Shown here: positions 3,446-23,254 of the stretch, piece by piece
How positions within the stretch are numbered: the stretch's first letter is position 1
Layout: the number at the start of each line of letters is the position of its first letter
Source of the DNA: a virus
Virus record (IMG/VR): IMGVR_UViG_3300017987_000009
Location: 1 to 64,000 of that record
Reading direction: 5' to 3' (one strand)
DNA length: 64,000 bases
Notes under the pieces: generated by a model
What the model was told of the DNA's origin: nothing
Seen by the model: the letters and a program-made list of their open reading frames with translations, nothing else
Database searches by the model: none
Program-made: the position numbers and the translations under genes

Positions 3446-4415
3446 CGGCAAACCTGGAGACCTTGACAAGCAGGACGCCCGCGAGATACTAGATCTACGG
3501 GTCAGAGAGGTGTCCCTCGTAGACCGGCCGGCGATCCGGCGCAGTTTCCTGGTTGTAAAACGACAAGAGGAGGATGAGATGGGAGCTTTCCAGGGTGACA
3601 CGGGCAGCGGTGCCGAGGTCGACGAGGTCATCGAGAAGATGGACTGGCACGACATCGACGTCGAGAAGGCGCTGCCGGCCGATCTGGCCAGCGCGATCAA
3701 GGAGGCGGTGGCTTTCATGAAGAAGGCCGCGGGCGAGGAGGGGGCTCCCGCCGACGCGCTCAAGCGCGTGGCCGCGTTCCTCTCGAAGGTCGCGGGCGGC
3801 AAGTACCCGTACCCGAAGCCGGCCGGCAAGACCGACGGCGACGGCGACGGCGACGGCAAGACCGGCGACGGCGACACCTCCAAGCAGGAGAAGTGCCCGG
3901 AGTGCGGCGCGCAGATGAAGGACGGCGTCTGCCCCGAGTGCGGCTACAAGGCCAAGGCCAAGACCCAGAAGTCCGAGGGCCTGACCGTGACCGTCTTGCC
4001 GGACGGCCAGGTGCAGGTGAGCGGCGAGCCGGTCGAGAAGGGCGGCAAGCAGTTCACCGCCGAGCGCATCGCGGGTGTCGGCGCCATCGCGAAGCAGGCG
4101 ATGTCGCTGCTCGCGGAGACCGACCCCGATACGGCGAAGGCGATCATCGCCGAGCTGGTCAAGGCCACGCTGCCGGCCGACCTGAAGTGGACGCAGGGCA
4201 CGCACGCGGTCCCGGCCTCCGTCAAGAAGGAGGACATCGAGGCGGCGGTGAAGGCGGCGGTCGAGCCCATCACGAAGAAGGTCGACGACATCGGCAACAA
4301 GGTCGAGGACATCACCAAGACGCGCGGGGAGCCGAAGTCCGGTGACGGCGACGACGCCGCCGACCAGGAGCCCACGCAGAAGAGCGAGAACTTCTGGAAG
4401 GACTTGCCCCTCTAG
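3432..4415 (+). CDS. Capsid scaffolding protein with N-terminal protease strand (EVSLVDRPA) and zinc ribbon
   Basis: Lies between protease and capsid genes. LDLRVREVSLVDRPA motif, CPECG..CPECG, coiled-coil-like C-terminal half. Second in-frame ATG at 3579 with strong SD GAGGAGG at 3567-3573. Confidence 0.8.
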   Translation: MGNSNGKPGDLDKQDAREILDLRVREVSLVDRPAIRRSFLVVKRQEEDEMGAFQGDTGSGAEVDEVIEKMDWHDIDVEKALPADLASAIKEAVAFMKKAAGEEGAPADALKRVAAFLSKVAGGKYPYPKPAGKTDGDGDGDGKTGDGDTSKQEKCPECGAQMKDGVCPECGYKAKAKTQKSEGLTVTVLPDGQVQVSGEPVEKGGKQFTAERIAGVGAIAKQAMSLLAETDPDTAKAIIAELVKATLPADLKWTQGTHAVPASVKKEDIEAAVKAAVEPITKKVDDIGNKVEDITKTRGEPKSGDGDDAADQEPTQKSENFWKDLPL

Positions 4416-4474
4416 GCCAGGGCTTCCAAAGGTCAGCGAACGGCAACCTAGTCAGTCAGTTCAAGGAGGAGAGG

Positions 4475-5668
4475 ATGACAAACGAGGAGTTGATCCAGAA
4501 GGCGATCACCGTCGCGGAGGCGCTGGTCACGCAGGGGAAGCTCAACCCGGCCCAGGCCGACAAGTTCATCGACTACGTCATCGACGAGTCCGTGATGCAG
4601 AACAACGTCCGGGTCGCGCGGTTCCGGAACGAAGAGTTGCACATCGACAAGATCGGCATCGGCAAGCGCGTGATGCACCCGGCGGTCGAGTACCAGGCCC
4701 CGGAGCGGCGCCTCGGCGTGTCGACCTCGCAGGTCAAGCTGAGCCCCCAGGAGGTCATCACCGCGTTCGACATCGGGGACAGCTTCAAGGAGCTGAACCT
4801 CGAGGGCGAGTCGGTGCAGGACCGGATCATCCGCATGTTCGCCACCGGCTGGCGGAACGACGCGGAGCTCCTGGAGCTGAACGGGGACACGGTCGGCCAG
4901 GCGTCGCTCGAGGGCGACGTCTGGGACGGCGGGTCGACCACGCAGTACATCAAGGACGACCTGCTCTCGATGTTCGACGGCTGGCTGCGGCTGTCAGACG
5001 GGGCCCACCTCGTCGACGTCCAGGGCGCCAACATCGGGCTGTCCGTCTTCGGGCAGATGATCCGGGCCATGCCTCAGAAGTTCCGGAGGAACAAGAAGGA
5101 GCTGCGGTTCTTCATGAGCTCCGACCTGGCGCAGATCTACATCGAGAAGATCGCGACCCGCATGACCGACAAGGGCGACAAGGCGGCCGAGGGCGAGACC
5201 CAGACGCCGTTCGGCATCCCCATCGTCGAGGTCCCGCTGATGGACCACCAGCCGACCGTCGTGGAGAGCGTCACGCTGGACGACGTGACCCCGGTCTCGC
5301 TCCGGTACGCGCCGGTGTCGAACGTCGTGGTCCTGCCCGACGCCCTCGACAAGACGCCCACCACGCCGTACCCGAACAACCTGACGGGCGGCGCGATCGT
5401 GAACGAGGCGGCGGGCACGCTCCTGTCGTTCGACAGCGGCAGCGGCCTCGACGGCGTCACCGTCAAGGTGACGTACTCCGCGCAGCCCATGCTCATGCTG
5501 ACGCACTGGCAGAACTTCATCATCGGCATCGGTCGCGACATCCGCATCGAGAAGCAGCGGAACATCCACAAGCGCGCCGACGAGTACGTCGTGACCGGCA
5601 AGCTCTCCGTGCAGATGGAGGAGCTGGACGCCGTCGTCAAGGCCTACAACGTCGGGCTCGGGGTCTAG
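4475..5668 (+). CDS. Major capsid protein (HK97 fold, XkdG-like)
   Basis: GKLNPAQADKFIDYVIDES N-terminus, LTHWQNFIIGIGRDIRIE C-terminal motif, strong SD GGGAGGAGAGG, position after scaffold. Confidence 0.92.
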   Translation: MTNEELIQKAITVAEALVTQGKLNPAQADKFIDYVIDESVMQNNVRVARFRNEELHIDKIGIGKRVMHPAVEYQAPERRLGVSTSQVKLSPQEVITAFDIGDSFKELNLEGESVQDRIIRMFATGWRNDAELLELNGDTVGQASLEGDVWDGGSTTQYIKDDLLSMFDGWLRLSDGAHLVDVQGANIGLSVFGQMIRAMPQKFRRNKKELRFFMSSDLAQIYIEKIATRMTDKGDKAAEGETQTPFGIPIVEVPLMDHQPTVVESVTLDDVTPVSLRYAPVSNVVVLPDALDKTPTTPYPNNLTGGAIVNEAAGTLLSFDSGSGLDGVTVKVTYSAQPMLMLTHWQNFIIGIGRDIRIEKQRNIHKRADEYVVTGKLSVQMEELDAVVKAYNVGLGV

Positions 5669-5681
5669 AGCTAACCAATAA

Positions 5682-5753
5682 ACGGCGGGTGGCGGCGTCA
5701 GCGTACGGGGCGCCGCCGTCCTAGCACCTCCGTACGACGCATCCGATTGGAGG
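5682..5753 (+). promoter_or_regulatory. Structured intergenic RNA after the capsid gene (alternative stems, anti-SD)
   Basis: Stem GGCGGCGTC 5691-5699 / GGCGCCGCC 5709-5717; CCTCC 5727-5731 complementary to SD GGAGG 5749-5753. Confidence 0.45.
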
Positions 5754-5763
5754 AATCTCAAGG

Positions 5764-6054
5764 ATGGCACACGCAAACGTGGTACTGAAGGGCAGCCTCT
5801 CGCACACCGTGCGGCTGCCGGGGACCTCGAGGGAGCTGAAGCTCGAGAAGAACAAGCCGTACCCGACGGCTGACCAGGCGCTGATCGACTACTGCAAGTC
5901 CAGGAAGCAGCTGTTCCTCGTGACCGAGACGGAGCCGGCGCCGGCCGAGAAGGCGAGCGGCGGCGACAAGCCGGCCGCGCGCGGCAAGCCCGGCAAGTCC
6001 GGCAAGTCCGGCAAGCGCGGGGGCGGGAAAGAGAAGGTGACCGGTGAGGACTAG
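5764..6054 (+). CDS. Hypothetical protein with Lys/Gly-rich tail
   Basis: SD + ATG, GC3-rich codons, directly after capsid gene. Confidence 0.75.
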   Translation: MAHANVVLKGSLSHTVRLPGTSRELKLEKNKPYPTADQALIDYCKSRKQLFLVTETEPAPAEKASGGDKPAARGKPGKSGKSGKRGGGKEKVTGED

Positions 6055-6361
6055 GGCGGTCACGGTTCCGGCCACTGTCGGGCCGGTCCAGGTCGAGGGC
6101 TTCCCGAAGGAGTGCAAGCGCAGGGGCTCGCTCCACCTCCGGCCGTCTACGGTCGAGCATCTGACGGACGCCGAGATCGCGCATGTCAAGAAGGCGCGGC
6201 CAGACGTCGCGGCGAAGCTCGTGGTGCAGGGCGACGCGCCTGTTCCGAAGGTGGAGGCCGCGCCTCCGCCGCCCGCGTACGAGCCGCCCACGCCGACCGA
6301 GAACGCCTTCGGCACGGGCGGCAGAGGCAAGAAGGGCAAGCGAGGCGGGAGCTCGAGCTAA
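6044..6361 (+). CDS. Hypothetical protein with Pro-rich and Lys/Gly-rich tail
   Basis: Overlaps upstream gene end, typical codon usage. Confidence 0.7.
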   Translation: MRTRAVTVPATVGPVQVEGFPKECKRRGSLHLRPSTVEHLTDAEIAHVKKARPDVAAKLVVQGDAPVPKVEAAPPPPAYEPPTPTENAFGTGGRGKKGKRGGSSS

Positions 6362-6382
6362 GGTCCGCCGAAAGGAGGGCCG

Positions 6383-6748
6383 GTGCTCTGTGTCCACCTC
6401 GCGAGCGGCCGCACGCTCCGCTTCGACCTGGCTGACGAGGGCCAGACGCGCGAGTGGCGCGACCGCGCCGGCGATCGCTCTTTCCAGTCGGAGGTTCGCG
6501 GCCTGACCATCCGGCACAACGGGGTGCAGTACTCGCTGCCTAGGCCGGACGGCTTCGGCCGCGTGTTCATGTTCGCGGAGAGGCTCGAGCCCGACGAGGG
6601 CCAGAAGTTCAAGGGAGGCGAGCGCCTCGTTTTGCAGGCCGGCGACGTGCGGCTGGTCGTGATGGCTCACGAGGCGCAGCGCGCGTCGCGAGTTAGCCTT
6701 ACCAAGACGGGGACCGTAGTGTACAATCCTCTTGAGCGGAGAGGTTGA
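6383..6748 (+). CDS. Hypothetical protein
   Basis: SD AAAGGAGG then GTG; typical codon usage. Confidence 0.7.
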   Translation: MLCVHLASGRTLRFDLADEGQTREWRDRAGDRSFQSEVRGLTIRHNGVQYSLPRPDGFGRVFMFAERLEPDEGQKFKGGERLVLQAGDVRLVVMAHEAQRASRVSLTKTGTVVYNPLERRG

Positions 6749-6749
6749 A

Positions 6750-8630
6750 ATGGCGACGCGCGCAGACCACCCGATAGACCTGCTGACCCAGACGAACTGG
6801 GATGACGTCGCGGCGTCGGGCAAGCCGACGGCCGAGAACAAGAGCATGGCCGCGCTCGCCACCTCGGGCGACGGCGACCTCGCCTGCAACACGGCGATGG
6901 CGAAGACCCCGGTGTTCGGCGGGTACGTGGTCCCGTACATCCGCGGCATCGCTGTCACGATCGGCAACGGAACGAAGGACAAGTGCTGCTACCTGTCGGG
7001 CGATGGCGGGGCAACGGCCCGGGCGTTCGCCGACGTTGCTGCTGGCGACAAGCTGTACTGGAATCCGACGGTCGCGGGTTACAATCTACAAGCCGGATGG
7101 CGGATCGACCTGTACTACTTGGAATCGTATAGCGGGGCCATCGGCGGCGGTGGCGCGAGCGTGTCGAGCATTGTCACGACCGGCGCGATCGAGTTGTGGG
7201 TGCGACCGGTGGACGGCGACGATTCGAACAGCGGAACGAGTTCGTCTACGCCGCTCGCGACGATCCAGGCGGCGATCAACAAGATCCCGCCGATCGTGCT
7301 GCACAAGGTCGTGATCCATGTTGGGATGCACACGGGCAGCGCACACGCGGCGTGGTTGCTTGGCCCGCGCCAACTGCGCGCCAACATTTGGATTCTCTTC
7401 GATGGCGGTGGCACGGTCGGCGATGATGGATTTACCGAGCTGTTGGCAGCCGAACAGCTGTCTAGCGTCCCTACTCAGGGCCATGTCCAGTTCTTGCAGT
7501 TGAACACGATTCACGAATACCGAGGCAAGACGCTGGAGATTGTCGACGGCTCTGGTGCTGGCGATCGACGCACGATCCAAGACAGCGAACCATCCGGCGG
7601 GATCAATCAATGGCTGGAGGTCTACACGTGCGCCGACTTATCGAGCGGCGTTGCGCCTGGCGACATTGCGCGGATCGTCGAGCCGAAGGCGGCGATGTAT
7701 CTACCGCCTGCGCTCAATGGGCGTGCCAACGAGTACAGGGCGATCGTCACCGGCTGTGGGAATGGCGGCAGCGACTACTACTCCCAGGACTACAGCGGCA
7801 AGGTCTTCGTCGTGAACGCCAAGATCAAGCCGGATCCTTCTCTGGCCGTGGGAGCCGTGGCGTGCCTGGACTCGACCGTCGTGTTCCTCGGCTGCGAACT
7901 CGATCCGCTCACGCTGATCGCGACGTCGAACTCCTCGCGCATGATGTACGGCATCGAGGACGGCGCTTACGACTACTGGGTGCCGAGCGCCGTAGACGAC
8001 GGCGTTGGAGCGGTGCAGAGATCGTCCTGGTACGGGTGGGGCATCTACTGCCCAGATGGTCCGGCCGGGTACTACTTCGGAGGGGCGCCAGAGAGGGGGC
8101 ACCACCACCACGCCGGGATCATCGTGGCGTCGCAGGCGAACTTCTACTACTCCAGCGTCGAGGTGTTCGGCGGCAACTTCTTCGGCGACGCCGGGGAGAG
8201 CGGCGGGTCGGTCGACGTCGGCCTCAGCCGGGTGTCGCTCACCTCCAAGGGCGCGAACAAGACGCTTGTCTACGGTCCGCGCGCCGACAAGTCCGCGATC
8301 CGCTGCTGGCTGCGCGGTGAGCTGTTCATCCAGTACACGAAGATCACCGGCATAGGCGACGGGATAGTGGTGGAGCAGGAGAGCCTGTGCGACGGGTTCT
8401 ACAGCGCGGCCTACACCGAGATAGACGTCAGCGGGTTCGGCATCAGGATGCGGAAGTCTGGAAAGCTTGGGGTCGGCGTTAGTGGCGGTGGCGACGCCGG
8501 GGCGATCGTCGGGGCGGCTGGCGACATCTCGATGGACGACGGCGCCTCGTCGTTCGGAGGGGAAACCGTTACGAGCGGCACCAGCAAGTTCGAGGGTGAC
8601 CCGCACGGCACGGCGTTGTGGGGAAGATAG
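6750..8630 (+). CDS. Virion fibre/spike-like structural protein (beta-rich)
   Basis: SD GAGAGG + ATG 6750. WVRPVDGDDSNSGTSSSTPLATIQAAINKIP is a motif that typically precedes beta-helix domains. Gly-rich, with a lower-GC middle. Confidence 0.6.
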   Translation: MATRADHPIDLLTQTNWDDVAASGKPTAENKSMAALATSGDGDLACNTAMAKTPVFGGYVVPYIRGIAVTIGNGTKDKCCYLSGDGGATARAFADVAAGDKLYWNPTVAGYNLQAGWRIDLYYLESYSGAIGGGGASVSSIVTTGAIELWVRPVDGDDSNSGTSSSTPLATIQAAINKIPPIVLHKVVIHVGMHTGSAHAAWLLGPRQLRANIWILFDGGGTVGDDGFTELLAAEQLSSVPTQGHVQFLQLNTIHEYRGKTLEIVDGSGAGDRRTIQDSEPSGGINQWLEVYTCADLSSGVAPGDIARIVEPKAAMYLPPALNGRANEYRAIVTGCGNGGSDYYSQDYSGKVFVVNAKIKPDPSLAVGAVACLDSTVVFLGCELDPLTLIATSNSSRMMYGIEDGAYDYWVPSAVDDGVGAVQRSSWYGWGIYCPDGPAGYYFGGAPERGHHHHAGIIVASQANFYYSSVEVFGGNFFGDAGESGGSVDVGLSRVSLTSKGANKTLVYGPRADKSAIRCWLRGELFIQYTKITGIGDGIVVEQESLCDGFYSAAYTEIDVSGFGIRMRKSGKLGVGVSGGGDAGAIVGAAGDISMDDGASSFGGETVTSGTSKFEGDPHGTALWGR

Positions 8631-8634
8631 GCCG

Positions 8635-8766
8635 ATGGCGATAGACAAGGATAAAGCAGCGGAGCAGTTCCGGCGGATGCTCGAACAGCTACCCTTGTCA
8701 CCGGACGAGGTGGACGAGCGCGTGAGCAAGATGATCGAGTGGATCGAGGAACAGGAGGAGGAGTGA
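8635..8766 (+). CDS. Small acidic hypothetical protein (43 aa)
   Basis: ATG 8635 fills the gap; stop overlaps the next GTG. Confidence 0.5.
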   Translation: MAIDKDKAAEQFRRMLEQLPLSPDEVDERVSKMIEWIEEQEEE

Positions 8767-9203
8767 GCGACGAGGGCCGCATACATCCTGATCAGATAGA
8801 GTCGGGCGGCGCAAGCCTCGACGAGATCCTGGTCTGGAACGGCTCCGCATGGGTGCCCGGTCCGCAGAGCGGTGGCGCGCAGGAGCAGCACGACCTCCTC
8901 GACAACGACTCGACCTACATCGTGGTCGGTGATATCACCTCGGACAAGGTCGTCCTCGTCCACTACTCCTTTCAGCTTCCGATCTCGGGACGGCAACGGA
9001 ACGGGACGTTGACGGTATCGCACGACGGCAGCACGCCCACGATCGATGAGGACTATTACTACGAGCTGGGTGATGAGATAACTTCCGTGACGTTCGGCAC
9101 GACCATCTCGGGCAGCGAGTTGCGCGTGACCATCGTCACTTCCAGCGTGGGGGAGAACCCGAAGCTGGTTTACCGAAGGGTTAGACTAGGCATCGCAGCC
9201 TAG
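8763..9203 (+). CDS. Hypothetical virion protein
   Basis: GTG 8763 after GGAGGAG; ILVWNGSAWVPG fibre-type repeat motif. Confidence 0.65.
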   Translation: MSDEGRIHPDQIESGGASLDEILVWNGSAWVPGPQSGGAQEQHDLLDNDSTYIVVGDITSDKVVLVHYSFQLPISGRQRNGTLTVSHDGSTPTIDEDYYYELGDEITSVTFGTTISGSELRVTIVTSSVGENPKLVYRRVRLGIAA

Positions 9204-9216
9204 AAGGAGCGAGACA

Positions 9217-10023
9217 GTGGCGCACAAGGAATATGGACAGACCGGGGTCGCCTCCGAGGTAGAGTTCGGAAAGGGCGGTCCCAAACTCAAGGACGAGTCG
9301 GGTAAGCTCACGGCGTACCAGAACGACGGCGCGACGTTGCAGGAGGTGGAGGGCGCGGCGCCGACCGGCCCTAACGCTTTCGCGACGAGGGAGTACGTCG
9401 ACACCCGCTCTGGTGCGCCGGTCACCGGGCAGATCCCCGGAAGTTCGCCGCCTGCGGTGGTGGACGGTGCGTTCTACATCTGCACCGAGACCGGCGGGGC
9501 ATACACCGAGAAGAATCTGTATTACGGCAAGGGTGGTAGCTGGATCGAGAAGGTGCCCGTCGAGGGAATGACGATCCACGTTACCGACGCCCTGACCGGG
9601 TACAACCAGGAGTACCTCGCGGACCACGTTTACATCTGGGACGCCGACGCCTCGACGTGGAACGACATCGGGCCGTACAACACGAAAACCGTCAAGACGG
9701 AGCGCGTCACGTTGGCGTTCGGCGACACGGGCGTCAATAACATCGGCTCCGCGCTTCCGGCGAACGCGCGGGTGCGGTCGGTCAAGGCGAACGTCACGCA
9801 GACCTTCGACGGCACCACCCCGGTGCTGAAGGTCGGGGACGCCTCCGACGACGACCGACACATGACGGAAGCGGAGAACGACCTGGAGACGGTCGGGCTG
9901 TACCAAACCGAGGTCGCGCACCTGTACGGGTCGCAGACGCAGGTGACCGCCACGCTCACGATCGGCGGCACGCCGACACAAGGCGCGGTGGCGTTGGAGA
10001 TCGAGTACTCGTTGGTCGGGTAG
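9217..10023 (+). CDS. Hypothetical virion structural protein (possible decoration/fibre)
   Basis: SD AAGGAG + GTG. FATREYVD fibre-type motif; beta-rich C-terminal domain. Confidence 0.65.
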   Translation: MAHKEYGQTGVASEVEFGKGGPKLKDESGKLTAYQNDGATLQEVEGAAPTGPNAFATREYVDTRSGAPVTGQIPGSSPPAVVDGAFYICTETGGAYTEKNLYYGKGGSWIEKVPVEGMTIHVTDALTGYNQEYLADHVYIWDADASTWNDIGPYNTKTVKTERVTLAFGDTGVNNIGSALPANARVRSVKANVTQTFDGTTPVLKVGDASDDDRHMTEAENDLETVGLYQTEVAHLYGSQTQVTATLTIGGTPTQGAVALEIEYSLVG

Positions 10024-10034
10024 CCGTTGTAACC

Positions 10035-10065
10035 GCCGGGAGGTCGCTCGCTCCTTCCTCCCGGC
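10035..10065 (+). terminator. GC-rich intergenic hairpin (terminator or processing site)
   Basis: GCCGGGAGG...CCTCCCGGC inverted repeat after the 10023 stop; no U-tract. Confidence 0.35.
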
Positions 10066-10078
10066 ATGAGGTGAGTGC

Positions 10079-12120: not shown

Positions 12121-12128
12121 GAGGAAGC

Positions 12129-12401: not shown

Positions 12402-12404
12402 ACC

Positions 12405-13502: not shown

Positions 13503-13518
13503 GGGAGAGAGGTTCCTA

Positions 13519-13932
13519 ATGGTGATGCGCCGGCCGAAGCTGATCCACCCTGTCGACGTCGTCCTCGAGCAGGTCGACGACGGCGAGACAGCGTGGGACG
13601 ACCAGGCGCGCGAGCCAGTGTTCCAGGCGGCGCACAGCGCGGCCGTCACGCTCAAGGGGCAGGCGAGCTACGGGTCGAGCGCGGACCTGTCGTTCGAGCG
13701 CGCCGGCCGGAGGGAGAACGAGAGCGGCTACGTCCTGTTCCGCACCGCCGACCTCGAGGCCGCCGGCGTGGCGCTGCGACCCAACGACCGGATCACCAAG
13801 GTCGGCAACGTCGACCACGACGTCTACATCACGAGGCTCGAGCCCAAGGGGCACTACCCGAAGTTCGGGCACACCCTGGTCAAGGCGTACTTCGCCGACC
13901 GGAAACCCGAGAAGCAGAGGAGGACAGCATGA
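13519..13932 (+). CDS. Head-tail stopper / head closure protein
   Basis: Size and position after adaptor; LRPNDRITKVG..YITRLEPKGHY. Confidence 0.65.
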   Translation: MVMRRPKLIHPVDVVLEQVDDGETAWDDQAREPVFQAAHSAAVTLKGQASYGSSADLSFERAGRRENESGYVLFRTADLEAAGVALRPNDRITKVGNVDHDVYITRLEPKGHYPKFGHTLVKAYFADRKPEKQRRTA

Positions 13933-14345
13933 TCGGACCAACTTCAACCCGGACCGTCGAGGTCCACAAGGCGGACATCCCGCTGCTGGACGGCGAGACG
14001 ATCCAGATGTACGAGCGCAAGCTGCGCGCCGACCTGCAGAAGCGGTTCGGCAAGAAGCCGACGAAGAAGAGCGAGGCGTCGGTCTACGTCTGGCCGCGCG
14101 CCGTGTTCGCGGACCGGGTGGTCATCGACAAGGACGAGCTGGGGATCGGCGACTCCAGCGAGCGCCTGTTCTCCGTGGCCTACACGCGGAAGGACGACGG
14201 CGCCTTCGACTTCGGCGAGCTCGTGGCCGTGCGCGAGCAGGTCAGCTTCGTCCCGATGGCGAAGTCCGAGGGCGGCGAGGGCGGCGCGGCCGACGAGGTC
14301 GAGACCGTGAAAGTCGACGGCCTCTGGGACAACCTGCCGCTCTGA
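13929..14345 (+). CDS. Hypothetical protein ending in the scaffold-like tag LWDNLPL (candidate capsid cargo)
   Basis: ATGA overlap at 13929, SD GAGGAGGA; C-terminus matches scaffold FWKDLPL. Confidence 0.8.
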   Translation: MIGPTSTRTVEVHKADIPLLDGETIQMYERKLRADLQKRFGKKPTKKSEASVYVWPRAVFADRVVIDKDELGIGDSSERLFSVAYTRKDDGAFDFGELVAVREQVSFVPMAKSEGGEGGAADEVETVKVDGLWDNLPL

Positions 14346-14346
14346 G

Positions 14347-14985
14347 ATGGCGACGCTGTTCCTAAAGGGCTGGAAGGGCTTCTCGAAGGCGATCGATCCG
14401 AAGCACGCGGGCCCGATCCTCAAGAAGCACGTCGGCCGCGCCACCGCGCGCAACGGGCACGCGGTGCGCAAGCTCGTCCGGCAGTACATCAAGGCGGGCG
14501 TGCCGCCGGAGAACAAGCCGCTGACCGCGCTGTTCAAGAAGGGCTCGACCCACCCGATCACCGGGACGCCCGGCGCCGACCTCTTCAACTCCATCGCCTC
14601 GGTGGTACACGACTGGCGGACCGCGTACGTCGGCGCGACCCGCGCGGAGGGCGACGCCAACATCGCCGAGATCGTCCACGAGGGCCGCGTCATCAAGGTC
14701 ACCGACAAGATGCGCGGCATGTTCTGGCTGCTCTGGCTGGTCTCGCGAGGGCGCGTCAGCCCCGAGAAGCTGACGGGCCGCGCGGCCGAGATTTACCAGC
14801 AGACCGACGGGGCCAAGGGAATCAAGCCGATCGCGAAGGCAACGCAGGCTATCGTCATCCCGAGGCGACCGTATCTGCAAGACGTGATAGAAGATCCGAC
14901 GACGCACCAGGTCCTCGACACCAACTGGACCAGGGCGGTAGCCGCCACGCTGAAAGAGATGGCGGAGAAGGGGATGAAGGTCTAG
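14347..14985 (+). CDS. Tail completion / virion morphogenesis protein
   Basis: Basic protein; NIAEIVHEG and IPRRPYL motifs; neck position. Confidence 0.65.
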   Translation: MATLFLKGWKGFSKAIDPKHAGPILKKHVGRATARNGHAVRKLVRQYIKAGVPPENKPLTALFKKGSTHPITGTPGADLFNSIASVVHDWRTAYVGATRAEGDANIAEIVHEGRVIKVTDKMRGMFWLLWLVSRGRVSPEKLTGRAAEIYQQTDGAKGIKPIAKATQAIVIPRRPYLQDVIEDPTTHQVLDTNWTRAVAATLKEMAEKGMKV

Positions 14986-16239
14986 GTGGAACTGCGCAGC
15001 TTCATAAAGCTTTTCACCTGGGAGGAGGGCGACCGCGACCGTGTCACGCTCGGCGACGGCACGCGGATCAACCCAGCCACGCACCGCGCGCAGCTCGGCT
15101 CCTACGACAGCGACGTCTACCCGACCGACGACGACCTGCACGTCAAGTCCTGGGTGGCGAACCCGCAGGCCGTCCGCCAGTGGCAGGGCTTCGAGGCGGA
15201 CGTGCGGCACAAGAGGATCGACGGCGAGACGGTCACGTCGGCGGGCTTCCGCCTGGGCGACGGCACCGACGAGTACTACTGGGACGGCGGCGCCTGGGCC
15301 GTCGCCGGCGCGAGCGACTGGAACACGGAGGTCGAGGTCGCGGCGAACATCTCGTCGTTCCCCGCCACGGCCCGCAAGCTGCAGGTGGTCGTCAACCTCA
15401 AGACGACCGACTCGTCGGCCACGCCCGAGCTCGTCTGCGTCAAGGTCCTGTTCGGCGCGCTGCTGGACGACGAGATCGAGGACATCGTGCTCCGGTCGCT
15501 GGCCCCGGCGCTGGAGGCGCTGCGGCCGGTCACGCGGCTGGACCTCAAGAAGGCGGGCGCCGACGACAAGGTCAAGCTCGGCGACTACCGGATCGACACC
15601 GGGTACGAGCTCCTCGACGTCGACGCGGTTTTCAACGAGACGGACGACCCGGACCACAACACCGACCTGTACTCCAGCCACACCTCGAACCCGGACGGTA
15701 CGATCGACGAGATCACGCTGACGGGCGCCGTCGCGGACGGCAAGCGGCTGCGGCTTCGCATGAGGTACAAGCCGGTCGTGGCGGTCTCGACCAGCCGCGA
15801 CTACCACGAGGTCGAGCACGTCCCGTCGATCCTGATCGACTCGATCGTCTACTCCGGGCGGGAGCTGTGGGGCGAAGACCACGTCGGGAACAAGGGCGAC
15901 GGCACCGCCAAGGTCATCCCGGCCCCTCTGCAGGGGCGTCTCGAGTTCGACATGACGGGGGTCGCGGCCCTGCTAGTCGACCACCTCCGCCTCCAGAAGA
16001 AGGTGACAGAGTTCTTCGGCGCCAACCACACGATAGTCTCGACAGGGCTGGACGAGTCGTATAGGCTGTGGCTTGTAGACGAGCACGAGCACAGGGCCGT
16101 CTCGAACGCGGAGGATCTACACTCTTGGCGGAAAACCTTTAGGATCGAGGACTTCAGGGTGTGGGCGAGGGGAGTCGAGGACGGCTACCTGGTCCAACGC
16201 TTCAAGCTCACTGGCGACCTGAACGCCACGGTGCAGTAG
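14986..16239 (+). CDS. Putative tail terminator with additional domains
   Basis: Immediately before sheath; the C-terminal PSILI..PAP..LEFDM..LQKKVTEFF region resembles terminators. Confidence 0.5.
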   Translation: MELRSFIKLFTWEEGDRDRVTLGDGTRINPATHRAQLGSYDSDVYPTDDDLHVKSWVANPQAVRQWQGFEADVRHKRIDGETVTSAGFRLGDGTDEYYWDGGAWAVAGASDWNTEVEVAANISSFPATARKLQVVVNLKTTDSSATPELVCVKVLFGALLDDEIEDIVLRSLAPALEALRPVTRLDLKKAGADDKVKLGDYRIDTGYELLDVDAVFNETDDPDHNTDLYSSHTSNPDGTIDEITLTGAVADGKRLRLRMRYKPVVAVSTSRDYHEVEHVPSILIDSIVYSGRELWGEDHVGNKGDGTAKVIPAPLQGRLEFDMTGVAALLVDHLRLQKKVTEFFGANHTIVSTGLDESYRLWLVDEHEHRAVSNAEDLHSWRKTFRIEDFRVWARGVEDGYLVQRFKLTGDLNATVQ

Positions 16240-16258
16240 GAAGGAAAAGGAGAGGGTC

Positions 16259-18577
16259 ATGGCAGATAAGATTTACGGTCCGGTACGTGGAGCAGGCACG
16301 CAGATCAGGGAGCGCACGGGCGACAAGCCGGTCTCTGAGGGCCAGCTCGGCTGGCGCGCGTACGCCGGCATCCTCGAGAAGGGGCCGCCCGACGAGCTCA
16401 TCTGGGCGAAGACGAAGGAGATCGCGGAGCGGAGGGTCGGGGGCTACATCGCCGATTCGCTCCTGCCGGACGCTGTCTACGACTCGTACAGGACCGGGGC
16501 GGGCGCCGGCGGCGTGCTGCTCAAGCGCGTGACCGACGGCAACGAGGTCCAGGCGCAGGCGACGCTGTACTCGCGGCGCGGCTCGCTGCTCACGCCGATG
16601 GGCACGCTCAAGGCCCACAACGGCGGGAACTGGGGCGGCAAGCTCAAGCGGTACTCTGCCGACCTCTCGGCGATCGGCAAGCTCGCCAACACCACGCTCG
16701 ACACCGAGGACACCACCTCGTTCAAGAAGGACGAGTGGAAGGGCGGCTACGTCCAGCTCAGCGGCGGGGCGAACCCCGCGAAACAGTACCCGATCGTCGG
16801 CAACACCGCCGACGGCGTCGTCACCGTGGCGTCGGACCAGACGATGCTCGACGACCTGAACGCCGGCACACCGGCCGACCTGCGCTACTACCTCGTGCGC
16901 GAGAACGAGGCGAAGGCCGTCAGCTACGTCATCCGCGACGGCGACGAGAACCCCGACAGCGAGTGGGCGCTCGACATCTACGTCGACGGCACCCTTGTCA
17001 GCTCGTACCCCAACCTGCACACCGACCCGACCCACGCGCGGTACTGGGTCAACGTCATCAACAACGACACGGCGAACTACGAGGTGGAGGCGGTCGACCT
17101 GTGGACCGGCGCCCACACCGCGGACGTGAGGCCGGCGAACATTTACGGGGTCATCGACACCGTCACCGCGACGGTCCTGACCCGCAAGCTGTACGACTTC
17201 ACGGTCAACTCGCCCGGCGGTGGCGATCCGACTTTCGCGCTGGGCACGACCGCCGACGAGATGGTCGCGCAGAAGATCACGGTCACCATGTCGGACGCCA
17301 CTACCGGCGTGGCCGTCAGCGACAAGTTCGGCGCGCTGGGGACCGTCACGCTGGGCACGCTGTTCGACCCTCCTGGCGGCGCCGGCGGCGCGGACAAGAA
17401 CAAGTGGGTCCCGCCCTTCACCGTGACGGCTGGTGCCTCGCCGCTCGTCGCGACCGACACGCTGGTCTTCAACTACAAGCCGTTCATCGTGGACGCGCTG
17501 ATCGGCGGGTACGTCTACCCGGACAAACCCAACTCGAAGCGGGAGAAGTACCGGATCGTCGACAACGACCACGAGAGCCTGACCGCGGCGGACGGCTCCG
17601 ACCTGACCGCGAGCGGCGCGATCGGCGACGAGTTCCTGGTCGAGGCGCCGCTGGAGCTCGAGGGCGGCCGCGACGGCAACGCCGACGTGGGCGACTCCGA
17701 GTACATCCAGGCGTGGGATCCGGACACCTGCCTGTTCAACCGGGTGCGGGACCGCGGCATGGGCCTGCTCAAGCTGGCGACGCCGGGCGTCACGGCGACC
17801 GCGGTGCAGAAGGCCGGGCTGGCCTACGCCGACGCCAAGAACCACCAGTACCGGATCGAGATCCCGGACAACGTCACGACCGACGAGGCGGCCGACGCCT
17901 ACGTCAACGAGACGATCGGGCGCAGCAACTACGAGGCGGTCGCGTTCCCGTCCTACTCGTACGTGGTCGACCCCGAGGCCGGCACCTCCGTCAAGCTGAA
18001 GCTGACCTCGAGGACCGGCGAGATCCACGGCCGCGAGGCGCGGATGGCCGTCGACAACGAGGGCTACCACAAGGCCGCGGCCGGCGTGGACGCCACCCTG
18101 CCGTCCGTCGTGAAGCTGACGACGGGCGAGCGGATCATCGACGAGGAGCTGCTCAACCCGCGCGGCCTGCAGGTCCTGCGGAAGAAACAGGGCAACTTCG
18201 TCATCTGGGGCGACCGCATTCCGGCGTCAGACCCGACGTGGACCTGGAAGCACCAGCGCGAGCAGTTGTCGTACTACGAGCAGGTTCTGATCGAGAGCTA
18301 CGACTGGATCGTCTTCGCGCTGCACAACCTCGAGACGCGTCAGCGCGGGCTCCAGTCGATCCGCGAGTTCTTCCGGCGGGAGTACAAGCGGCAGGCGCTG
18401 GACAACGACTACGACTTCTCGGAGGCCGCGGTCATCAAGCTCGACGCGGAGCTCAACACGCAGGACGTCAAGGAGGCCGGCGACATGCTGTGCCACATCG
18501 CGCTGCGGCTGGTCGGGACCGTCGAGCGGTTCATCATCAGCATCGGCAAGCAGGGGATCTTCGAGTCTGTGGGGTAG
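16259..18577 (+). CDS. Contractile tail sheath protein
   Basis: YAGILEKGP N-terminus, LEGGRDG, and LNPRGLQVLRKKQGNFVIWGDR..WIVFALHN sheath C-terminal motifs. Confidence 0.92.
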   Translation: MADKIYGPVRGAGTQIRERTGDKPVSEGQLGWRAYAGILEKGPPDELIWAKTKEIAERRVGGYIADSLLPDAVYDSYRTGAGAGGVLLKRVTDGNEVQAQATLYSRRGSLLTPMGTLKAHNGGNWGGKLKRYSADLSAIGKLANTTLDTEDTTSFKKDEWKGGYVQLSGGANPAKQYPIVGNTADGVVTVASDQTMLDDLNAGTPADLRYYLVRENEAKAVSYVIRDGDENPDSEWALDIYVDGTLVSSYPNLHTDPTHARYWVNVINNDTANYEVEAVDLWTGAHTADVRPANIYGVIDTVTATVLTRKLYDFTVNSPGGGDPTFALGTTADEMVAQKITVTMSDATTGVAVSDKFGALGTVTLGTLFDPPGGAGGADKNKWVPPFTVTAGASPLVATDTLVFNYKPFIVDALIGGYVYPDKPNSKREKYRIVDNDHESLTAADGSDLTASGAIGDEFLVEAPLELEGGRDGNADVGDSEYIQAWDPDTCLFNRVRDRGMGLLKLATPGVTATAVQKAGLAYADAKNHQYRIEIPDNVTTDEAADAYVNETIGRSNYEAVAFPSYSYVVDPEAGTSVKLKLTSRTGEIHGREARMAVDNEGYHKAAAGVDATLPSVVKLTTGERIIDEELLNPRGLQVLRKKQGNFVIWGDRIPASDPTWTWKHQREQLSYYEQVLIESYDWIVFALHNLETRQRGLQSIREFFRREYKRQALDNDYDFSEAAVIKLDAELNTQDVKEAGDMLCHIALRLVGTVERFIISIGKQGIFESVG

Positions 18578-18603
18578 AACGCCCCGTTCACTAGGAGGAG
18601 ACA

Positions 18604-19065
18604 ATGACGGCAACACTGAAGAAGGATCTAGGGAAGGCCGGGGCGTTCCTCGGGGACGAGTCCGGCGGGTACTTGAACAGCGCGCTCCGCGACTCGCTCG
18701 TGGAGATGGCGCTCGGTCCGCGCGACCTGAACGGGCACCAGGACACGGTCGCCACCGCGACTATCGCGGGTATGCTGGCGAAGCGCGCCGGGTTCCTGAC
18801 GGGGCTGCGCACCTCGGTCGGCACCTGCGGCACCGCCGACTCGACGACCGTGCAGGTCCACAAGAACGGCGCGGCCGTGACCGGGCTGGAGCTGAGTACG
18901 GCGCACGACGAGGCGGACGGCACGAAGAAGGCGGTCGCGCTGGACACGCCGGTCGCGATCGCGGCCGGGGACCTCGTGGAGCTGGTCGTGTCGGCCGCGC
19001 CCACCGCCGGGTCGGCGCTCGACGCCACCGCGGAGGTCATGCCGGACATCACGGTCGAGACGTAG
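18604..19065 (+). CDS. Hypothetical virion protein between sheath and tube
   Basis: Strong SD AGGAGGAG; Ala/Thr-rich, beta-type sequence. Confidence 0.7.
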   Translation: MTATLKKDLGKAGAFLGDESGGYLNSALRDSLVEMALGPRDLNGHQDTVATATIAGMLAKRAGFLTGLRTSVGTCGTADSTTVQVHKNGAAVTGLELSTAHDEADGTKKAVALDTPVAIAAGDLVELVVSAAPTAGSALDATAEVMPDITVET

Positions 19066-19129
19066 GCCGCGCGGCCTGCGGTAGCGATAGGCGCTGTCAA
19101 GGGGCGAACTAGCTGCAAGGAGCAGAGAC

Positions 19130-19570
19130 ATGACGCTGAAGGGAAAGATCAAGGACAACCACATCCCGCTCAACAAGTTCGAGCTGCTGGTGGCGGGGCT
19201 CCCGCAGATCACGCTGATTACCACCGACGACATCGAGGAGTCGATCAACGTGATCGAGATGCCCGACCGGACGAAGCGCAGCGGCGGGCAGACCTCCGCG
19301 GTCGAGTTCACCGGCACGATCCCGATGCACCACGACGTCGAGGTCGCGGCGCTCGAGGCCTGGTACAAGCAGGGCCAGGACCCGGTGCAGGAGGGCTACC
19401 TCAAGGCGGGGTCGATGATGTGGTACCGGAACGACGGCAGCCCGAGGCCGTTCGAGCTGATCAACCTCTGGGTCTCCGGCCGGACCATACCGGGCGGGGA
19501 CATGGAGAACGACGGAGAGCCGGCGATGCTCACGTTCACCTTCCAGGCGGACGAGGTCACGCCGGTATAG
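19130..19570 (+). CDS. Tail tube protein (T4 gp19-like)
   Basis: 146 aa after sheath; IPLNKFELLV..LEAWY..FELINLWVS pattern. Confidence 0.85.
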   Translation: MTLKGKIKDNHIPLNKFELLVAGLPQITLITTDDIEESINVIEMPDRTKRSGGQTSAVEFTGTIPMHHDVEVAALEAWYKQGQDPVQEGYLKAGSMMWYRNDGSPRPFELINLWVSGRTIPGGDMENDGEPAMLTFTFQADEVTPV

Positions 19571-19634
19571 CAGTCAAACCGACAGCCCCGGCGGCGGGGC
19601 CTATCAAGGCCGCTAGGCCGATTGGAGGTGCGCC

Positions 19635-20600
19635 GTGACAGAATCGGAGACAGTGGGCGGCATCCCGTCCCACGACGGCAACGTGAAGGACGGTCCCGAG
19701 CAGGCGGCCGGCCTGGCCCAGACGACCCTCGGGGGGCGCGGGCCGGTCCTCGCCATGGGCGTGCCGGGCCCAGGCGGCAAGCTCGCGCGTGACATCGAGC
19801 TCCGACCGTGGAAGGGCAGGCAGATGCGCGAGCTCGGCAGGCTCCGCGAGGAGAACGAGAACGCGAACATGTCCGAGCACATCGGGCTGGTCCTGTCGTC
19901 GATGTGCTCGCGCCTCGGCGGGCAGGACTTCTCGAAGCTGCAGGCGAAGGAGCGGAAGCTGTTCGTCTCGCGGATGTACATGGGCGACGTGTTCCACGCG
20001 TACTGCTACGCGCGGCTCAAGTCGCTCGGCCCAGACTTGCACGTGAACTTGACGTGCCCAGCCTGCCGGCTCGAGTTCCCGTGGACCGGCGACCTCGAGA
20101 CGCTGACGGTCGCGACGGCTGAGAGGGTCGAGGACGCCATGTGGGAGTACGAGCTGTTGTCGCCGGTCGAGCTGCGCGGGCAGGCCGTCGAGAGGCTGTC
20201 GATGGGGCCGCCGTACTGGCACCACGTCGAGCGCGCCCAGGTGGAGGGGAGCCTCGACCTCGAGGGCGGCAAGCTCGCGCTTGTCGCCGGCGCGGTGTAC
20301 GGGATCGTAGGCCGCGACGCGCAGACGCCGCTGACCGACGCGGAGATCGACGAGCTGGAGGGCCGTGACATCGAGGGGATCATCGCGCGGCTCGACGACC
20401 ACCACGTCGGGCCGGACATGCGGATCGAGACGCGCTGCGAGCGGAAGGGCTGTCGCAGCCGGATCCTCCGCCCGATCGACTGGAGCTACCAATCTTTTTT
20501 CGGAAGTTCTTCCCGCTCCCCGACGCCAAGGAGCTCTTCGACCGGATGTTCGCGATCACCTTTCACTCTAAGGGCGCGGTCGGCTGGGGCGACGCCCTAG
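19635..20600 (+). CDS. Tail assembly chaperone (T4 gp26-like)
   Basis: Between tube and tape measure; RLKSLG..LTCPAC..GDL and a second Cys-containing unit ending in SFF. Confidence 0.7.
   Translation: MTESETVGGIPSHDGNVKDGPEQAAGLAQTTLGGRGPVLAMGVPGPGGKLARDIELRPWKGRQMRELGRLREENENANMSEHIGLVLSSMCSRLGGQDFSKLQAKERKLFVSRMYMGDVFHAYCYARLKSLGPDLHVNLTCPACRLEFPWTGDLETLTVATAERVEDAMWEYELLSPVELRGQAVERLSMGPPYWHHVERAQVEGSLDLEGGKLALVAGAVYGIVGRDAQTPLTDAEIDELEGRDIEGIIARLDDHHVGPDMRIETRCERKGCRSRILRPIDWSYQSFFGSSSRSPTPRSSSTGCSRSPFTLRARSAGATP
20495..20501 (+). promoter_or_regulatory. -1 ribosomal frameshift slippery site T TTT TTC
   Basis: X XXY YYZ heptamer in the chaperone frame; the -1 frame is open to 20734. Confidence 0.8.
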
Positions 20601-20734
20601 ACATGACGCTCGAGGACCAGGAGGAGTACTTGCGGCGGATGGAGGAGCAGCAGAAGCTGGAGGAGCGGGAGGCCGAGAGGCTGCGCAGGAGGCTGAAGCT
20701 GCGGAGGCCGCGGACCAGGAGGTTCAGGAGGTAG
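20495..20734 (+). CDS. Frameshift extension of the tail chaperone (gp51-like / 'T' part)
   Basis: -1 frame reads FFRKFFPLPDAKELFDRMFAITFHSKGAVGWGDALDMTLEDQEEYL; ends just before the tape measure gene. Confidence 0.75.
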   Translation, partial: FFRKFFPLPDAKELFDRMFAITFHSKGAVGWGDALDMTLEDQEEYLRRMEEQQKLEEREAERLRRRLKLRRPRTRRFRR

Positions 20735-20738
20735 GGCG

Positions 20739-23051
20739 ATGCCGGCCGGCGGGAGCATGCTACTGAAGGCGATCCTCGAGTTCGACGTCGGGCGCGCGAT
20801 GGCGAACATGGGGAAGGCCTCGGTCGGCTTCCGCAGGATGCAGTCGAGCGCCAACCGCGTCACCGGCGGGATGGGCAAGATGGGCGGCGCCTTCGGCCGG
20901 GCGGCGCTTGGCCTCGCGCCGCTCGCTGTCGGCTTCGGCCTGGCCGTCCACCACGCGCGCCAGTTCGGGCGCGGCGTGTCGGAGGTCGCGACGATCGCGG
21001 ACGAGGCCGAGTTCCCGATCTCGAAGATCGAGGCGACGACGCTCGACCTGGCCAAGACCTTCGGGACGGCGCCGGTCGAGCAGACCAAGGGCCTGTACCA
21101 GGCGATCTCCGCCGGCGCGACGTCCGCGGCGGAGGCGACCGGCCTGCTGGACGCGGCGAACAAGCTGGCGATCGGCGGCGTGTCCGACACCTTCACGTCC
21201 ATCGACGTGCTGACCACGGCGCTGAACGCGTACAAGCAGCAGGAGCTCGAGGCGACGGACGCGACGGACACGCTGTTCACCGCGGTTCGCCTGGGCAAGA
21301 CGACGGTCGACGAGCTCGGAGCCGGCCTCGGGCAGGTCATCCCGACAGCGGCGCAGCTCGGCATCAAGTTCTCCGACCTGAACGCGGCGGTCGCGGCCAT
21401 TACCACGCAGGGCATCGTGACCGCGCAGGCGACGACCGGCCTGAACGCGGCCCTCGCCAACATCATCAAGCCGAGCGACCAGGCCAAAGAGGCGGCGGCG
21501 GGGCTGGGGATCGAGTTCACCTCGACCGCGCTCAAGTCGAAGGGGCTGGTCCAGTTCATGGGCGAGATCGTCGACAGGGCCGGCGGGGACGAGGTCGCGC
21601 TGTCCAAGCTGTTCGGGTCGATCCGCGGCGTGCGCGCCATCATGGCGCTGACCAACGCGGAGGGGCAGAAGTTCAACGAGATCGTCGCCGCCATGGAGGA
21701 CCGCGCCGGCGCGGCGGACAAGGCGTTCCAGAAGATGGCGGGGACCGCCGGCTTCCAGATGCGCAAGCTGAACGCGCTGCGCGTGGTGGCGTCGACGGTG
21801 CTTGGCCAGGTCATGACCGGATCGCTGGTGCGGATGGCCGCGCCGCTGGCCGACGTCCTCGAGGGCTTCGTCGGGATACTGGAGGCCGTGAAGTCGGGCG
21901 ACATGAAGGGGCTCGGGCCGACGTCGGCCGCGATCGCGAGCGGGATGCGCGACGCCTTCGACGCGATCAACGCCGGCGTCGACTCGCTCGTCTCGTCGTT
22001 CCGATCAGCCGGCGGCTGGCTGACGAAGGTGCTCGGCCCCGACGCGTGGCAGAAGATCGCCAAGTTCGGGACTGTCCTCGGCATCGCGGCCGCGGCCATC
22101 GCGCCGATCGGGCTCGCCCTCGCCGGCGTCGGCTTCATCGTCCCGGCGGTCGTCACCGCTGTGACGGGCCTCGCCACCGTGATCTCCGGCGCGTTCGGCC
22201 TGATCCTCGGGCCTATCGGCATCGCCATCGCCGCGGTTATCGTGTTCCGCGAGCAGCTGTGGAGCGCGTTCCAGGGGCTGCTCGAGGTGGTCGGCCCGGT
22301 GTTCGAGGACATCAAGGCGATATTCTGGGACCTCGTCGACACCGTGATGCGCGCGTTCGGCGTCATCACCGGCCAGTTCGACCAGGGCACTGGCGCCGCC
22401 AAGGCGGACTGGAGGGAGGTCGGCCGGGTGGTCGGCGCGGTGCTGGGCGCCATCCTGACCAGCGTGGCGAAAGTCGCCGCGTTCGTTGTGAAGCTCGGGG
22501 TCTGGGGTACTGTCGCGTTCAAGTCCGTGGGCGAGGCGATCGGCGAGCTCGGCGGCATTATCGTCAGCATGGCGCTGAGCCCGCTCCGCACGTTGGCCCG
22601 CGGGCTGGTGGCCTTCATGGAGTTCTCGGGGATGGAGGTCCCGTTCTCCATCCGCGCGTACGCCGGCGGCGGCGCCGCGCCGCGGGCGGCCGGCCGCGGG
22701 GTCGGGGGCGGGCAGGCGCGCGGCCTGGGCGAGCGCGTCGCGCAGTTCGGCAAGGCCGAAGCCCGCGCGTCGGCGGAGGAGAAGGTCGCGGCGGAGGAGC
22801 ACCGCGGCGCGCTCGCCTCCGTGCTCGACGAGGTCAAGAACGCGGCGAACAGCGCGGCGGACGGAGCGCACTCAGCCGCCGACGCCGCCAAGAAGAAGCC
22901 TTGCGCGTCCGTCAACCTCGACGGCCGCGAGGTCGCGCGCTCCAACCGCAAGGCGGAGGATGAGATCAAGGAGCGGTCCGGCTTCACCGCGACGCCGTGG
23001 CAGCGGCGGATGGCGGTCGAGCACGGGGCCGTACCGGTGACAAGGAGCTGA
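20739..23051 (+). CDS. Tape measure protein (TP901-family core)
   Basis: Ala/Gly-rich helical sequence; GLYQAISAG..LAIGG..AVRLGKTT..ATTGL core, hydrophobic segments. Confidence 0.92.
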   Translation: MPAGGSMLLKAILEFDVGRAMANMGKASVGFRRMQSSANRVTGGMGKMGGAFGRAALGLAPLAVGFGLAVHHARQFGRGVSEVATIADEAEFPISKIEATTLDLAKTFGTAPVEQTKGLYQAISAGATSAAEATGLLDAANKLAIGGVSDTFTSIDVLTTALNAYKQQELEATDATDTLFTAVRLGKTTVDELGAGLGQVIPTAAQLGIKFSDLNAAVAAITTQGIVTAQATTGLNAALANIIKPSDQAKEAAAGLGIEFTSTALKSKGLVQFMGEIVDRAGGDEVALSKLFGSIRGVRAIMALTNAEGQKFNEIVAAMEDRAGAADKAFQKMAGTAGFQMRKLNALRVVASTVLGQVMTGSLVRMAAPLADVLEGFVGILEAVKSGDMKGLGPTSAAIASGMRDAFDAINAGVDSLVSSFRSAGGWLTKVLGPDAWQKIAKFGTVLGIAAAAIAPIGLALAGVGFIVPAVVTAVTGLATVISGAFGLILGPIGIAIAAVIVFREQLWSAFQGLLEVVGPVFEDIKAIFWDLVDTVMRAFGVITGQFDQGTGAAKADWREVGRVVGAVLGAILTSVAKVAAFVVKLGVWGTVAFKSVGEAIGELGGIIVSMALSPLRTLARGLVAFMEFSGMEVPFSIRAYAGGGAAPRAAGRGVGGGQARGLGERVAQFGKAEARASAEEKVAAEEHRGALASVLDEVKNAANSAADGAHSAADAAKKKPCASVNLDGREVARSNRKAEDEIKERSGFTATPWQRRMAVEHGAVPVTRS

Positions 23052-23053
23052 CT

Positions 23054-23254
23054 ATGAGCAAAGAGAACGGAAACCTGGGGGCTGGCGCTGGCGGGCTAGG
23101 CCTCGGGCCAGGCGGGAAGTGCGTGTGCCCCAAATGCGGCACGAAGGTCGACCACGAGACCGGCAAGACGTGCCTGGACCAGAAGTGCCCGAAGTGCGGG
23201 GCGTCGATGTCCCGCGAGGTGAAGAAGGGCTTCTGGGGCGGGCTCCCACTGTAG
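23054..23254 (+). CDS. Small Cys-rich zinc-ribbon protein ending in the scaffold-like tag FWGGLPL
   Basis: SD AAGGAG + ATG 23054; GPGGKCVCPKCG..C..KCPKCG. Confidence 0.8.
   Translation: MSKENGNLGAGAGGLGLGPGGKCVCPKCGTKVDHETGKTCLDQKCPKCGASMSREVKKGFWGGLPL

Follow-up and report, generated by a model that had tools for sequence, protein, structure and literature searches.

A scaffold-matched C-terminal peptide on unrelated proteins of an uncultured phage, a candidate label for the capsid interior

The stretch of DNA analyzed here, referred to throughout as the window, comprises the first 64,000 bases of the 91,588-base contig of IMG/VR virus record IMGVR_UViG_3300017987_000009, and it encodes three proteins – a scaffolding protein and two small proteins, P0002 and P0003 – that end in a common peptide pattern, [FL]W-x-x-LPL, directly before the stop codon. 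We call this peptide the tag in the present genome and, more generally, the C-terminal tail. The ends of the contig overlap by ~123 bases, from which we conclude that the genome is complete, circular or permuted, and ~91,465 bp long; its G+C content is 66-70%, and the + strand holds nearly all of its genes.

Three genes with one C-terminal peptide

3432..4415, + strand: scaffolding protein, 327 amino acids, encoded between the protease polyprotein and the major capsid protein
4392..4412, + strand: tag 1, FWKDLPL, the end of the scaffold; stop codon at 4413-4415, Lys 3 residues upstream
13929..14345, + strand: P0002, a neck-region protein of 138 amino acids; its gene adjoins a Neck1-like gene (14347-14985) on the 5' side of the latter
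14322..14342, + strand: tag 2, LWDNLPL, the end of P0002; stop codon at 14343-14345
23054..23254, + strand: P0003, a zinc-ribbon protein of 66 amino acids, encoded directly 3' of the tape-measure gene (20739-23051)
23231..23251, + strand: tag 3, FWGGLPL, the end of P0003; stop codon at 23252-23254

The three C-termini are as the first-pass annotation had described them from the translations, and its claim that no further gene in the window ends this way holds for the whole contig as well, since a six-frame scan for W..LP[LIVMF] yields exactly three matches in the window and three in all 91,588 bases, each abutting a stop codon. At the nucleotide level, the pattern W-x-x-L/F-P-L/F-stop is observed three times against an expectation of 0.04 ± 0.20 derived from 100 dinucleotide-preserving shuffles, none of which reached three. 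When the last 8 residues of the scaffold are compared with the ends of 1071 open reading frames (ORFs) of at least 40 amino acids, the other two tagged ORFs rank second and third with scores of 29 and 26, and the next best scores 14. The annotation's further statements – that the carriers are otherwise unrelated, that conservation is at the peptide level, and that each tag follows a Lys by 1-3 residues – are borne out too: BLASTP and hhalign comparisons among the carriers recover the tag alone, plus generic CPxCG knuckles in the scaffold and P0003; the tag codons differ among the three genes, indicating that selection acts on the peptide; and a Lys stands 3, 3 and 1 residues ahead of the hydrophobic-Trp pair. 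Because the codons differ, an explanation at the DNA level, as a repeat or regulatory element, was rejected. All three tagged genes have a Shine-Dalgarno sequence and a high G+C content at third codon positions (0.88-0.96; scaffold 0.91, P0002 0.96, P0003 0.88).

The scaffold gene belongs to a head module whose other relevant features are the following.

Contig position 90885, across the circular junction, to window position 3445, + strand: polyprotein ORF, 1341 amino acids
3038..3412, + strand: XkdF-type prohead protease domain (Peptidase_S78_2; Pfam PF14550, E 1e-25), the last domain of the polyprotein
4475..5668, + strand: major capsid protein, 397 amino acids, HK97 fold (phrog_1623, E 3.5e-75)

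Reading across the junction gives the polyprotein its length of 1341 residues, compared with 1138 when it is read in the window alone. It includes C5 methylase and ATP-ligase domains, and the protease domain stands at its end. The PF14550 match spans residues 1004-1128 of the 29-3445 translation and scores 90.6 bits against a cut-off of 24. This domain is encoded just upstream of the scaffold and capsid genes, as in XkdF/XkdG-type head modules, and all three hallmarks of such a module are present: an S78_2 protease, an XkdG-related HK97-fold capsid protein, and a scaffold with a Trp-centred tail. The scaffold opens with a strand motif, has a zinc ribbon at its centre and closes with the tag, and its residues 193-308 resemble the scaffold part of phrog_3017, a 'head maturation protease' (E 7e-9). 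The capsid protein is ~33% identical to annotated major capsid proteins of Streptomyces phages and ~32% identical to that of Bacillus phage PBP180; its AlphaFold2 model (predicted local distance difference test score, pLDDT, 78.5) matches 348 PDB chains at E<=1e-3, the best of them all phage capsid proteins (E down to 2e-10). Searches by sequence found no solved structure for this capsid protein family or for an XkdF-like protein. Downstream of the head module lie the Neck1-like gene (a weak PHROG match), a tail sheath gene and the tape-measure gene, and upstream of it ORFs of 503 and 581 amino acids would fit terminase and portal by size and position alone.

The tail on scaffolds and on other protein families

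The tail appears to be an old feature of scaffolds in this type of head. A scan with the capsid protein yielded 54 related viral contigs (79-22% identity). In the majority of these loci, down to ~27% capsid identity, the ORF that immediately precedes the capsid gene has the ending [F/L/I/M/V]-W-x-[G/D/N]-hydrophobic-hydrophobic; a Lys precedes the hydrophobic-Trp pair by 1-5 residues and the stop codon follows the tail. Bacillus phage PBP180 ORF10, an XkdF-like protease-scaffold fusion, ends ..TKPIWDGLL, and Streptomyces phage Yaboi gp51 has a looser, extended form. On the strength of these comparisons, the tail of the present phage, K-x(1-3)-[F/L]-W-x-x-L-P-L, is a local form of an old peptide, K-S-[F/L]-W-x-G-[V/L/I]-[L/I/V]-COOH, that ends the scaffolds or protease-scaffolds of XkdF/XkdG-type heads. 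The ending ..LPL is itself a local variant, replaced by ..VPLR in L001, the closest relative, and by ..LPIVV and ..LPF in the homologues P0007 and P0008. The pattern search of the genome and its relatives that the first-pass annotation had proposed thus gives the three genomic hits and a tail that recurs in relatives, kept on scaffolds and on homologues of both small proteins, as that annotation had expected of a genuine signal. Some lineages depart from this picture. In G003 (L016), G004 (L011/L031), L015 and L030, with capsids 47-50% identical, the scaffold either extends far past the Trp or has no Trp at its end, and none of these loci has a second ORF with the same ending as its scaffold, such that the tail system seems to have been remodelled or lost. 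Further afield, a metagenome scan with alignment A3 added one distant locus (L107) with a looser tail, a genome scan with alignment A1 added four distant loci in bacterial genome assemblies, without a clue to the host, and tblastn searches of 50,697 phage records with the scaffold, P0002 and P0003 gave no match.

Within a genome the tags tend to match one another. The 94.9-kb relative G001, with a capsid protein 51% identical to that studied here, has a scaffold, a protein with an N-terminal PNEHAAR motif and a ribbon protein that all end FWDGVI, a local match comparable to the three LPL ends of the present genome. A scaffold together with at least one further tagged ORF is found in seven relatives (G001, G002, G006-G009 and L026), and tag identity within genomes is 0.62 versus 0.40 for shuffled assignment (p = 2e-4), in a set of genomes that is small and partly related. 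The position of the tagged genes is variable: P0002-like genes lie ~8-10 kb upstream of the scaffold gene in G008 and G009, and the ribbon gene of G001 follows a different tail gene.

In P0002, residues ~14-107 form an alpha+beta domain, which a disordered, acidic linker connects to the tag, and in the AlphaFold2 model a helix packs on a four- to five-stranded sheet, with the disordered acidic linker ahead of the tail. The protein has no match in Pfam or PHROGs, and a fold search with the model returned nothing in the PDB at E<=0.001, a best BFVD match at E 2e-3, and otherwise weak leads; the weak fold neighbours include cystatin-like proteins (E > 0.2) and large proteins that are annotated as prohead protease or bear S78, S77 or DUF2213 domains. 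By hhalign, no P0002-like domain is present in the phage's own polyprotein or scaffold. A profile search nevertheless places P0002 in a large, unnamed family of 285 clusters at E<=1e-3. Among the best 150 representatives of these clusters, 108 satisfy a strict pattern for the tail and ~20 others have evident variants of it (~85% together), and in a 49-sequence alignment the tail Trp is the sole invariant column. The family consensus is K(-3) S(-2) F/L(-1) W x G V/L/I L/I/V; over 127 family members, exactly 4 residues follow the Trp in 82, Gly occupies +2 in 102, Lys occupies -3 in 57, and a Lys lies 2-6 residues upstream in 109. Two members, L022 and L026, have a second domain inserted and still carry the tag at the extreme C-terminus. 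Many members also have a second conserved Trp upstream (..GGW..T.KSFW.GVL), and at -8 no residue is more frequent than Trp (27/127). The tags of the phage described here are without this second Trp.

In P0003 a Gly-rich N-terminal stretch precedes a zinc ribbon with four Cys, and the tag closes the protein; searches of Pfam and PHROGs yield generic zinc-ribbon hits only. Its ribbon core belongs to a family of Gly/Arg-rich miniproteins in which 19 other homologues, one of them from a Thermoplasmatota metagenome-assembled genome, stop just past the ribbon; a Lys-rich linker and the tail are added only in the phage versions, namely P0003, P0008 and an 83-amino-acid open frame of G001 (76 amino acids from the first Met). 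The PNEHAAR family shows a comparable pattern, with 32 of its 45 members tagged and ~11 more distant members ending, untagged, at the domain boundary. Further tagged types are L018, which is weakly ChaB-like, and a 'FINNLPD' domain protein (L020, L021); apart from the weak ChaB hit for L018 (E 0.02), no family was found for the candidate cargo proteins of the relatives. The 'FINNLPD' proteins also start with a tail-like peptide followed by Lys (MWGNIL-K.. at L020:17487-17510, MWESVL-K.. in L021) and have a normal tail at the end. At least five unrelated domain types carry the tail. The first-pass annotation had proposed that the phage reuses its scaffold peptide as a portable address label. 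Sequence comparison strongly supports the first part of this proposal, a conserved and portable label taken over from the C-terminus of the scaffold; the address that it might specify is considered in the next section.

The search with the P0002 family also retrieved P0059, a 509-amino-acid protein that consists, in order, of a PNEHAAR-like segment (E 0.003, weak), an L020-type domain (63% identity, E 3e-24), a P0002-like domain (E 2e-9) and Peptidase_S78_2 (E 3.9e-17). Judged by these matches, two or more of the domains that occur in this clade as separate proteins with a scaffold tail are covalently tied to the prohead protease elsewhere, and the large 'prohead protease' proteins among the weak fold neighbours of the P0002 model are in keeping with such a fusion. 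P0059 is a smaller analogue of the enzyme-carrying protease polyprotein of the present phage.

A candidate label for the capsid interior

We consider it probable that the tail is a scaffold-derived label for the capsid interior. The strongest indirect argument comes from P0059, as domains that elsewhere carry the tail are there fused to a protease that must itself enter the procapsid, which suggests that the tail signifies 'inside of the procapsid'. By analogy with the scaffold C-termini of P22 and 80alpha, the tail would dock, with the Trp leading, on the interior surface of the HK97-fold capsid protein while the procapsid assembles, and any tailed protein would be trapped inside the shell; P0002 and P0003, both small late proteins, would be loaded alongside the scaffold into sites that the scaffold leaves free, and the XkdF-type protease would then probably cut close to the conserved Lys and release the domains from the wall. 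The major capsid protein is the presumed receptor of the tag and the XkdF-type protease the presumed trimming enzyme; receptor, cleavage and cargo packaging are steps that we infer, and the protease polyprotein may, as the first-pass annotation had proposed, belong to the same system. Solved systems provide the precedents. The capsid N-arm of 80alpha is bound by the final 16-21 residues of its scaffold, which SaPI1 CpmB copies (PMC5644958); the C-terminus of scaffold and CpmB forms a helix-and-hook, and the capsid:scaffold ratio of ~2:1 (Dearborn et al. 2017, PMC5644958) implies that binding sites are left free. Scaffold ends touch the inner N-arm or spine helix in P22, phi29, D3 and HK97 (PMC12749128). 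A complex prediction for the capsid protein (A1) with P0003 residues 18-66 (A2) gave an ipSAE of 0.00 in both of two runs, which were made without controls, and it counts neither for nor against this docking.

Several points weigh against this interpretation. The conserved Lys may belong to the binding epitope and not to a cleavage site, and the portal, the protease or the scaffold core are other possible receptors. In PBP180 and Yaboi, cultured relatives that were checked whole, the tail is confined to the protease-scaffold, and the additional tagged proteins are consequently known only from metagenomic contigs; the present phage is likewise uncultured, and it and its tagged relatives are known from their sequences alone. 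Besides the small number and partial relatedness of the genomes behind the tag-matching test, the three tags of G001 are nearly identical in DNA too, and recent copying could contribute to their similarity.

Among the alternatives, the one that survives best, and which we still regard as unlikely, is that the small tagged proteins, instead of being cargo for delivery, modulate assembly: by competing with the scaffold for its capsid sites they might influence capsid size, timing or protease activation. SaPI1 CpmB provides a precedent, as it shares the 80alpha scaffold tail and redirects capsid size (PMC5644958); the direct fusion of a P0002-like domain to the protease in P0059 fits as well, and the cystatin-like folds that the P0002 model weakly resembles would be in character for a regulator of proteases, but these hits lie far below significance (E > 0.2). 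Moreover, the small proteins are without the dimerising coiled coil of scaffolds, and the spread of the tail over five or more unrelated types of domain is easier to reconcile with a general address than with a single regulatory role.

It is improbable, in our estimation, that the XkdF-type prohead protease, rather than the capsid protein, is what recognizes the tail, whether as a docking signal that marks substrates or as a C-terminal degron. The Lys conserved 2-6 residues upstream in most of the P0002 family would be expected of such a signal, as would the fusion of cargo domains to the protease in P0059, and in other phages the protease is known to cleave the scaffold. However, the PBP180 tail ends a protease-scaffold fusion, which would oblige the protease to bind its own C-terminus; in the systems solved to date, it is the capsid protein that receives the extreme end of the scaffold (PMC5644958; PMC12749128); and recruited substrates would still need a route into the shell.

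We give little credence to a third possibility, in which the portal or the scaffold core is what the tail binds and a small number of each tagged protein would sit at the portal vertex, helping, for instance, in head completion or ejection. In its favour, the P0002 gene has neck genes as neighbours and the P0003 gene adjoins that of the tape measure, and contacts between scaffold and portal are known in other phages, but the positions of these genes differ among relatives (G008, G009 and G001), and the peptide ends a scaffold whose copies far outnumber what a 12-mer portal could hold. Finally, the motif is short, but that the shared ending is chance or a functionless leftover of gene fission can for practical purposes be set aside, given three occurrences against a shuffle expectation of 0.04, a Trp that is invariant in the 49-member alignment, and the fact that fission of a polyprotein would leave a C-terminal tail on one fragment only.

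Known systems and wider meaning

If the tail is indeed a label for the capsid interior, it is quite possible, although we would not yet count on it, that XkdF/XkdG-head phages include a large group with a native encapsulin-like C-terminal code, in which a scaffold-matched tail causes a protein to be docked, packaged, trimmed by the protease and possibly delivered with the DNA. Encapsulin shells descend from HK97-fold capsids, and a short C-terminal peptide on unrelated proteins addresses these to the shell interior. The present genome shares with these systems a short terminal peptide common to unrelated candidate cargo proteins. It differs in that encapsulin shells come without portal, terminase and tail genes, whereas sheath, tape-measure and Neck1-like genes are present here, and in that the peptide is copied from a scaffold, has another consensus and is probably cleaved off.

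A shared C-terminal tail is also found in herpesviruses, in which the protease and the scaffold share a C-terminal tail that binds the capsid protein, and cleavage at the M-site just upstream frees the contents. By analogy, the conserved Lys of the phage tail may be a release site for the XkdF-type protease, or it may be part of the epitope. The herpesvirus proteins are the products of nested genes of one protein family, unlike a tail on unrelated proteins, and there is no sequence relation between the two systems. PBP180 ORF10 (PBSX-like, XkdF-type, PF14550) is nearer in descent, with the same protease family, the ~32% identical capsid protein and the same C-terminal tail, but there protease, scaffold and tail form one protein and no other ORF is tailed, whereas here a separate scaffold is accompanied by two further tailed genes.

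Capsid-loading signals of tailed phages are known from few model systems, and those of T4 and P1 are N-terminal. The T4 signal is removed by the prohead protease, S77 (gp21). The T4 capsid-targeting sequence of IPI-III and Alt and the N-terminal signal of P1 DarB load non-structural proteins into the procapsid and can carry foreign proteins (PMC9024508). In contrast to these N-terminal signals, served in T4 by an S77 protease, the peptide described here is at the extreme C-terminus, matches the scaffold, and accompanies an S78_2 (XkdF-type) protease. The 80alpha/CpmB pair is similar in that otherwise different proteins share the extreme C-terminal peptide of the scaffold, which there binds the N-arm of an HK97-fold capsid protein and is exchangeable between proteins. 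Nonetheless, the second protein in that pair is the scaffold of a parasitic island and alters capsid size, whereas here the carriers are the phage's own small, non-scaffold domains; and the 80alpha peptide has RIIK after an amphipathic helix, whereas the present one is Trp-centred, [F/L]-W-x-x-L-P-L, has no RIIK, and would bind the capsid protein only by extension from that case. N-terminal capsid-targeting signals (T4, P1), engineered P22 scaffold fusions, the 80alpha/CpmB pair and encapsulin cargo peptides are all already known; our literature search found no description of a phage's own unrelated small proteins bearing a copy of the scaffold's C-terminal tail.

If the interpretation is correct, hundreds of protein clusters in at least five unrelated domain families would become predictable as virion-internal proteins, and internal or injected proteins could be recognized from sequence in a widespread, mostly uncultured group of phages. 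The tagged domains would be candidates for proteins acting at the very start of infection, and the tail would form a natural bridge between phage scaffold tails and encapsulin cargo-loading peptides. The tail would also offer an existing means of bringing foreign proteins into phage capsids, and a tag of 8-10 residues could place chosen proteins in capsids or virus-like particles.

Two features of the scaffold outside its tag are worth recording. Its zinc ribbon, CPxCG...CPxCG, is encoded at window positions 3888-3962 (residues 153-177); Cys pairs occur in the matching region of Yaboi gp51, and none occurs in the G001 scaffold. The N-terminal strand-like motif, ..EVSLVDRPA..FLVVKR, is encoded at 3501-3566 (residues ~24-45), and the same motif lies at the N-terminus of the PBP180 XkdF-like protein, ahead of the protease, and just after the S78 protease domain in Yaboi gp51. 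In the present phage the protease ends one ORF and the strand motif opens the next, which overlaps it by 14 bases in another frame; since the protease and scaffold ORFs of G001 are more than 200 bases apart, fusion by frameshifting is unlikely. Through the strand motif, the protease of the polyprotein might be linked to the scaffold in trans, and the entry of the polyprotein into the capsid without a tag of its own would then be accounted for.

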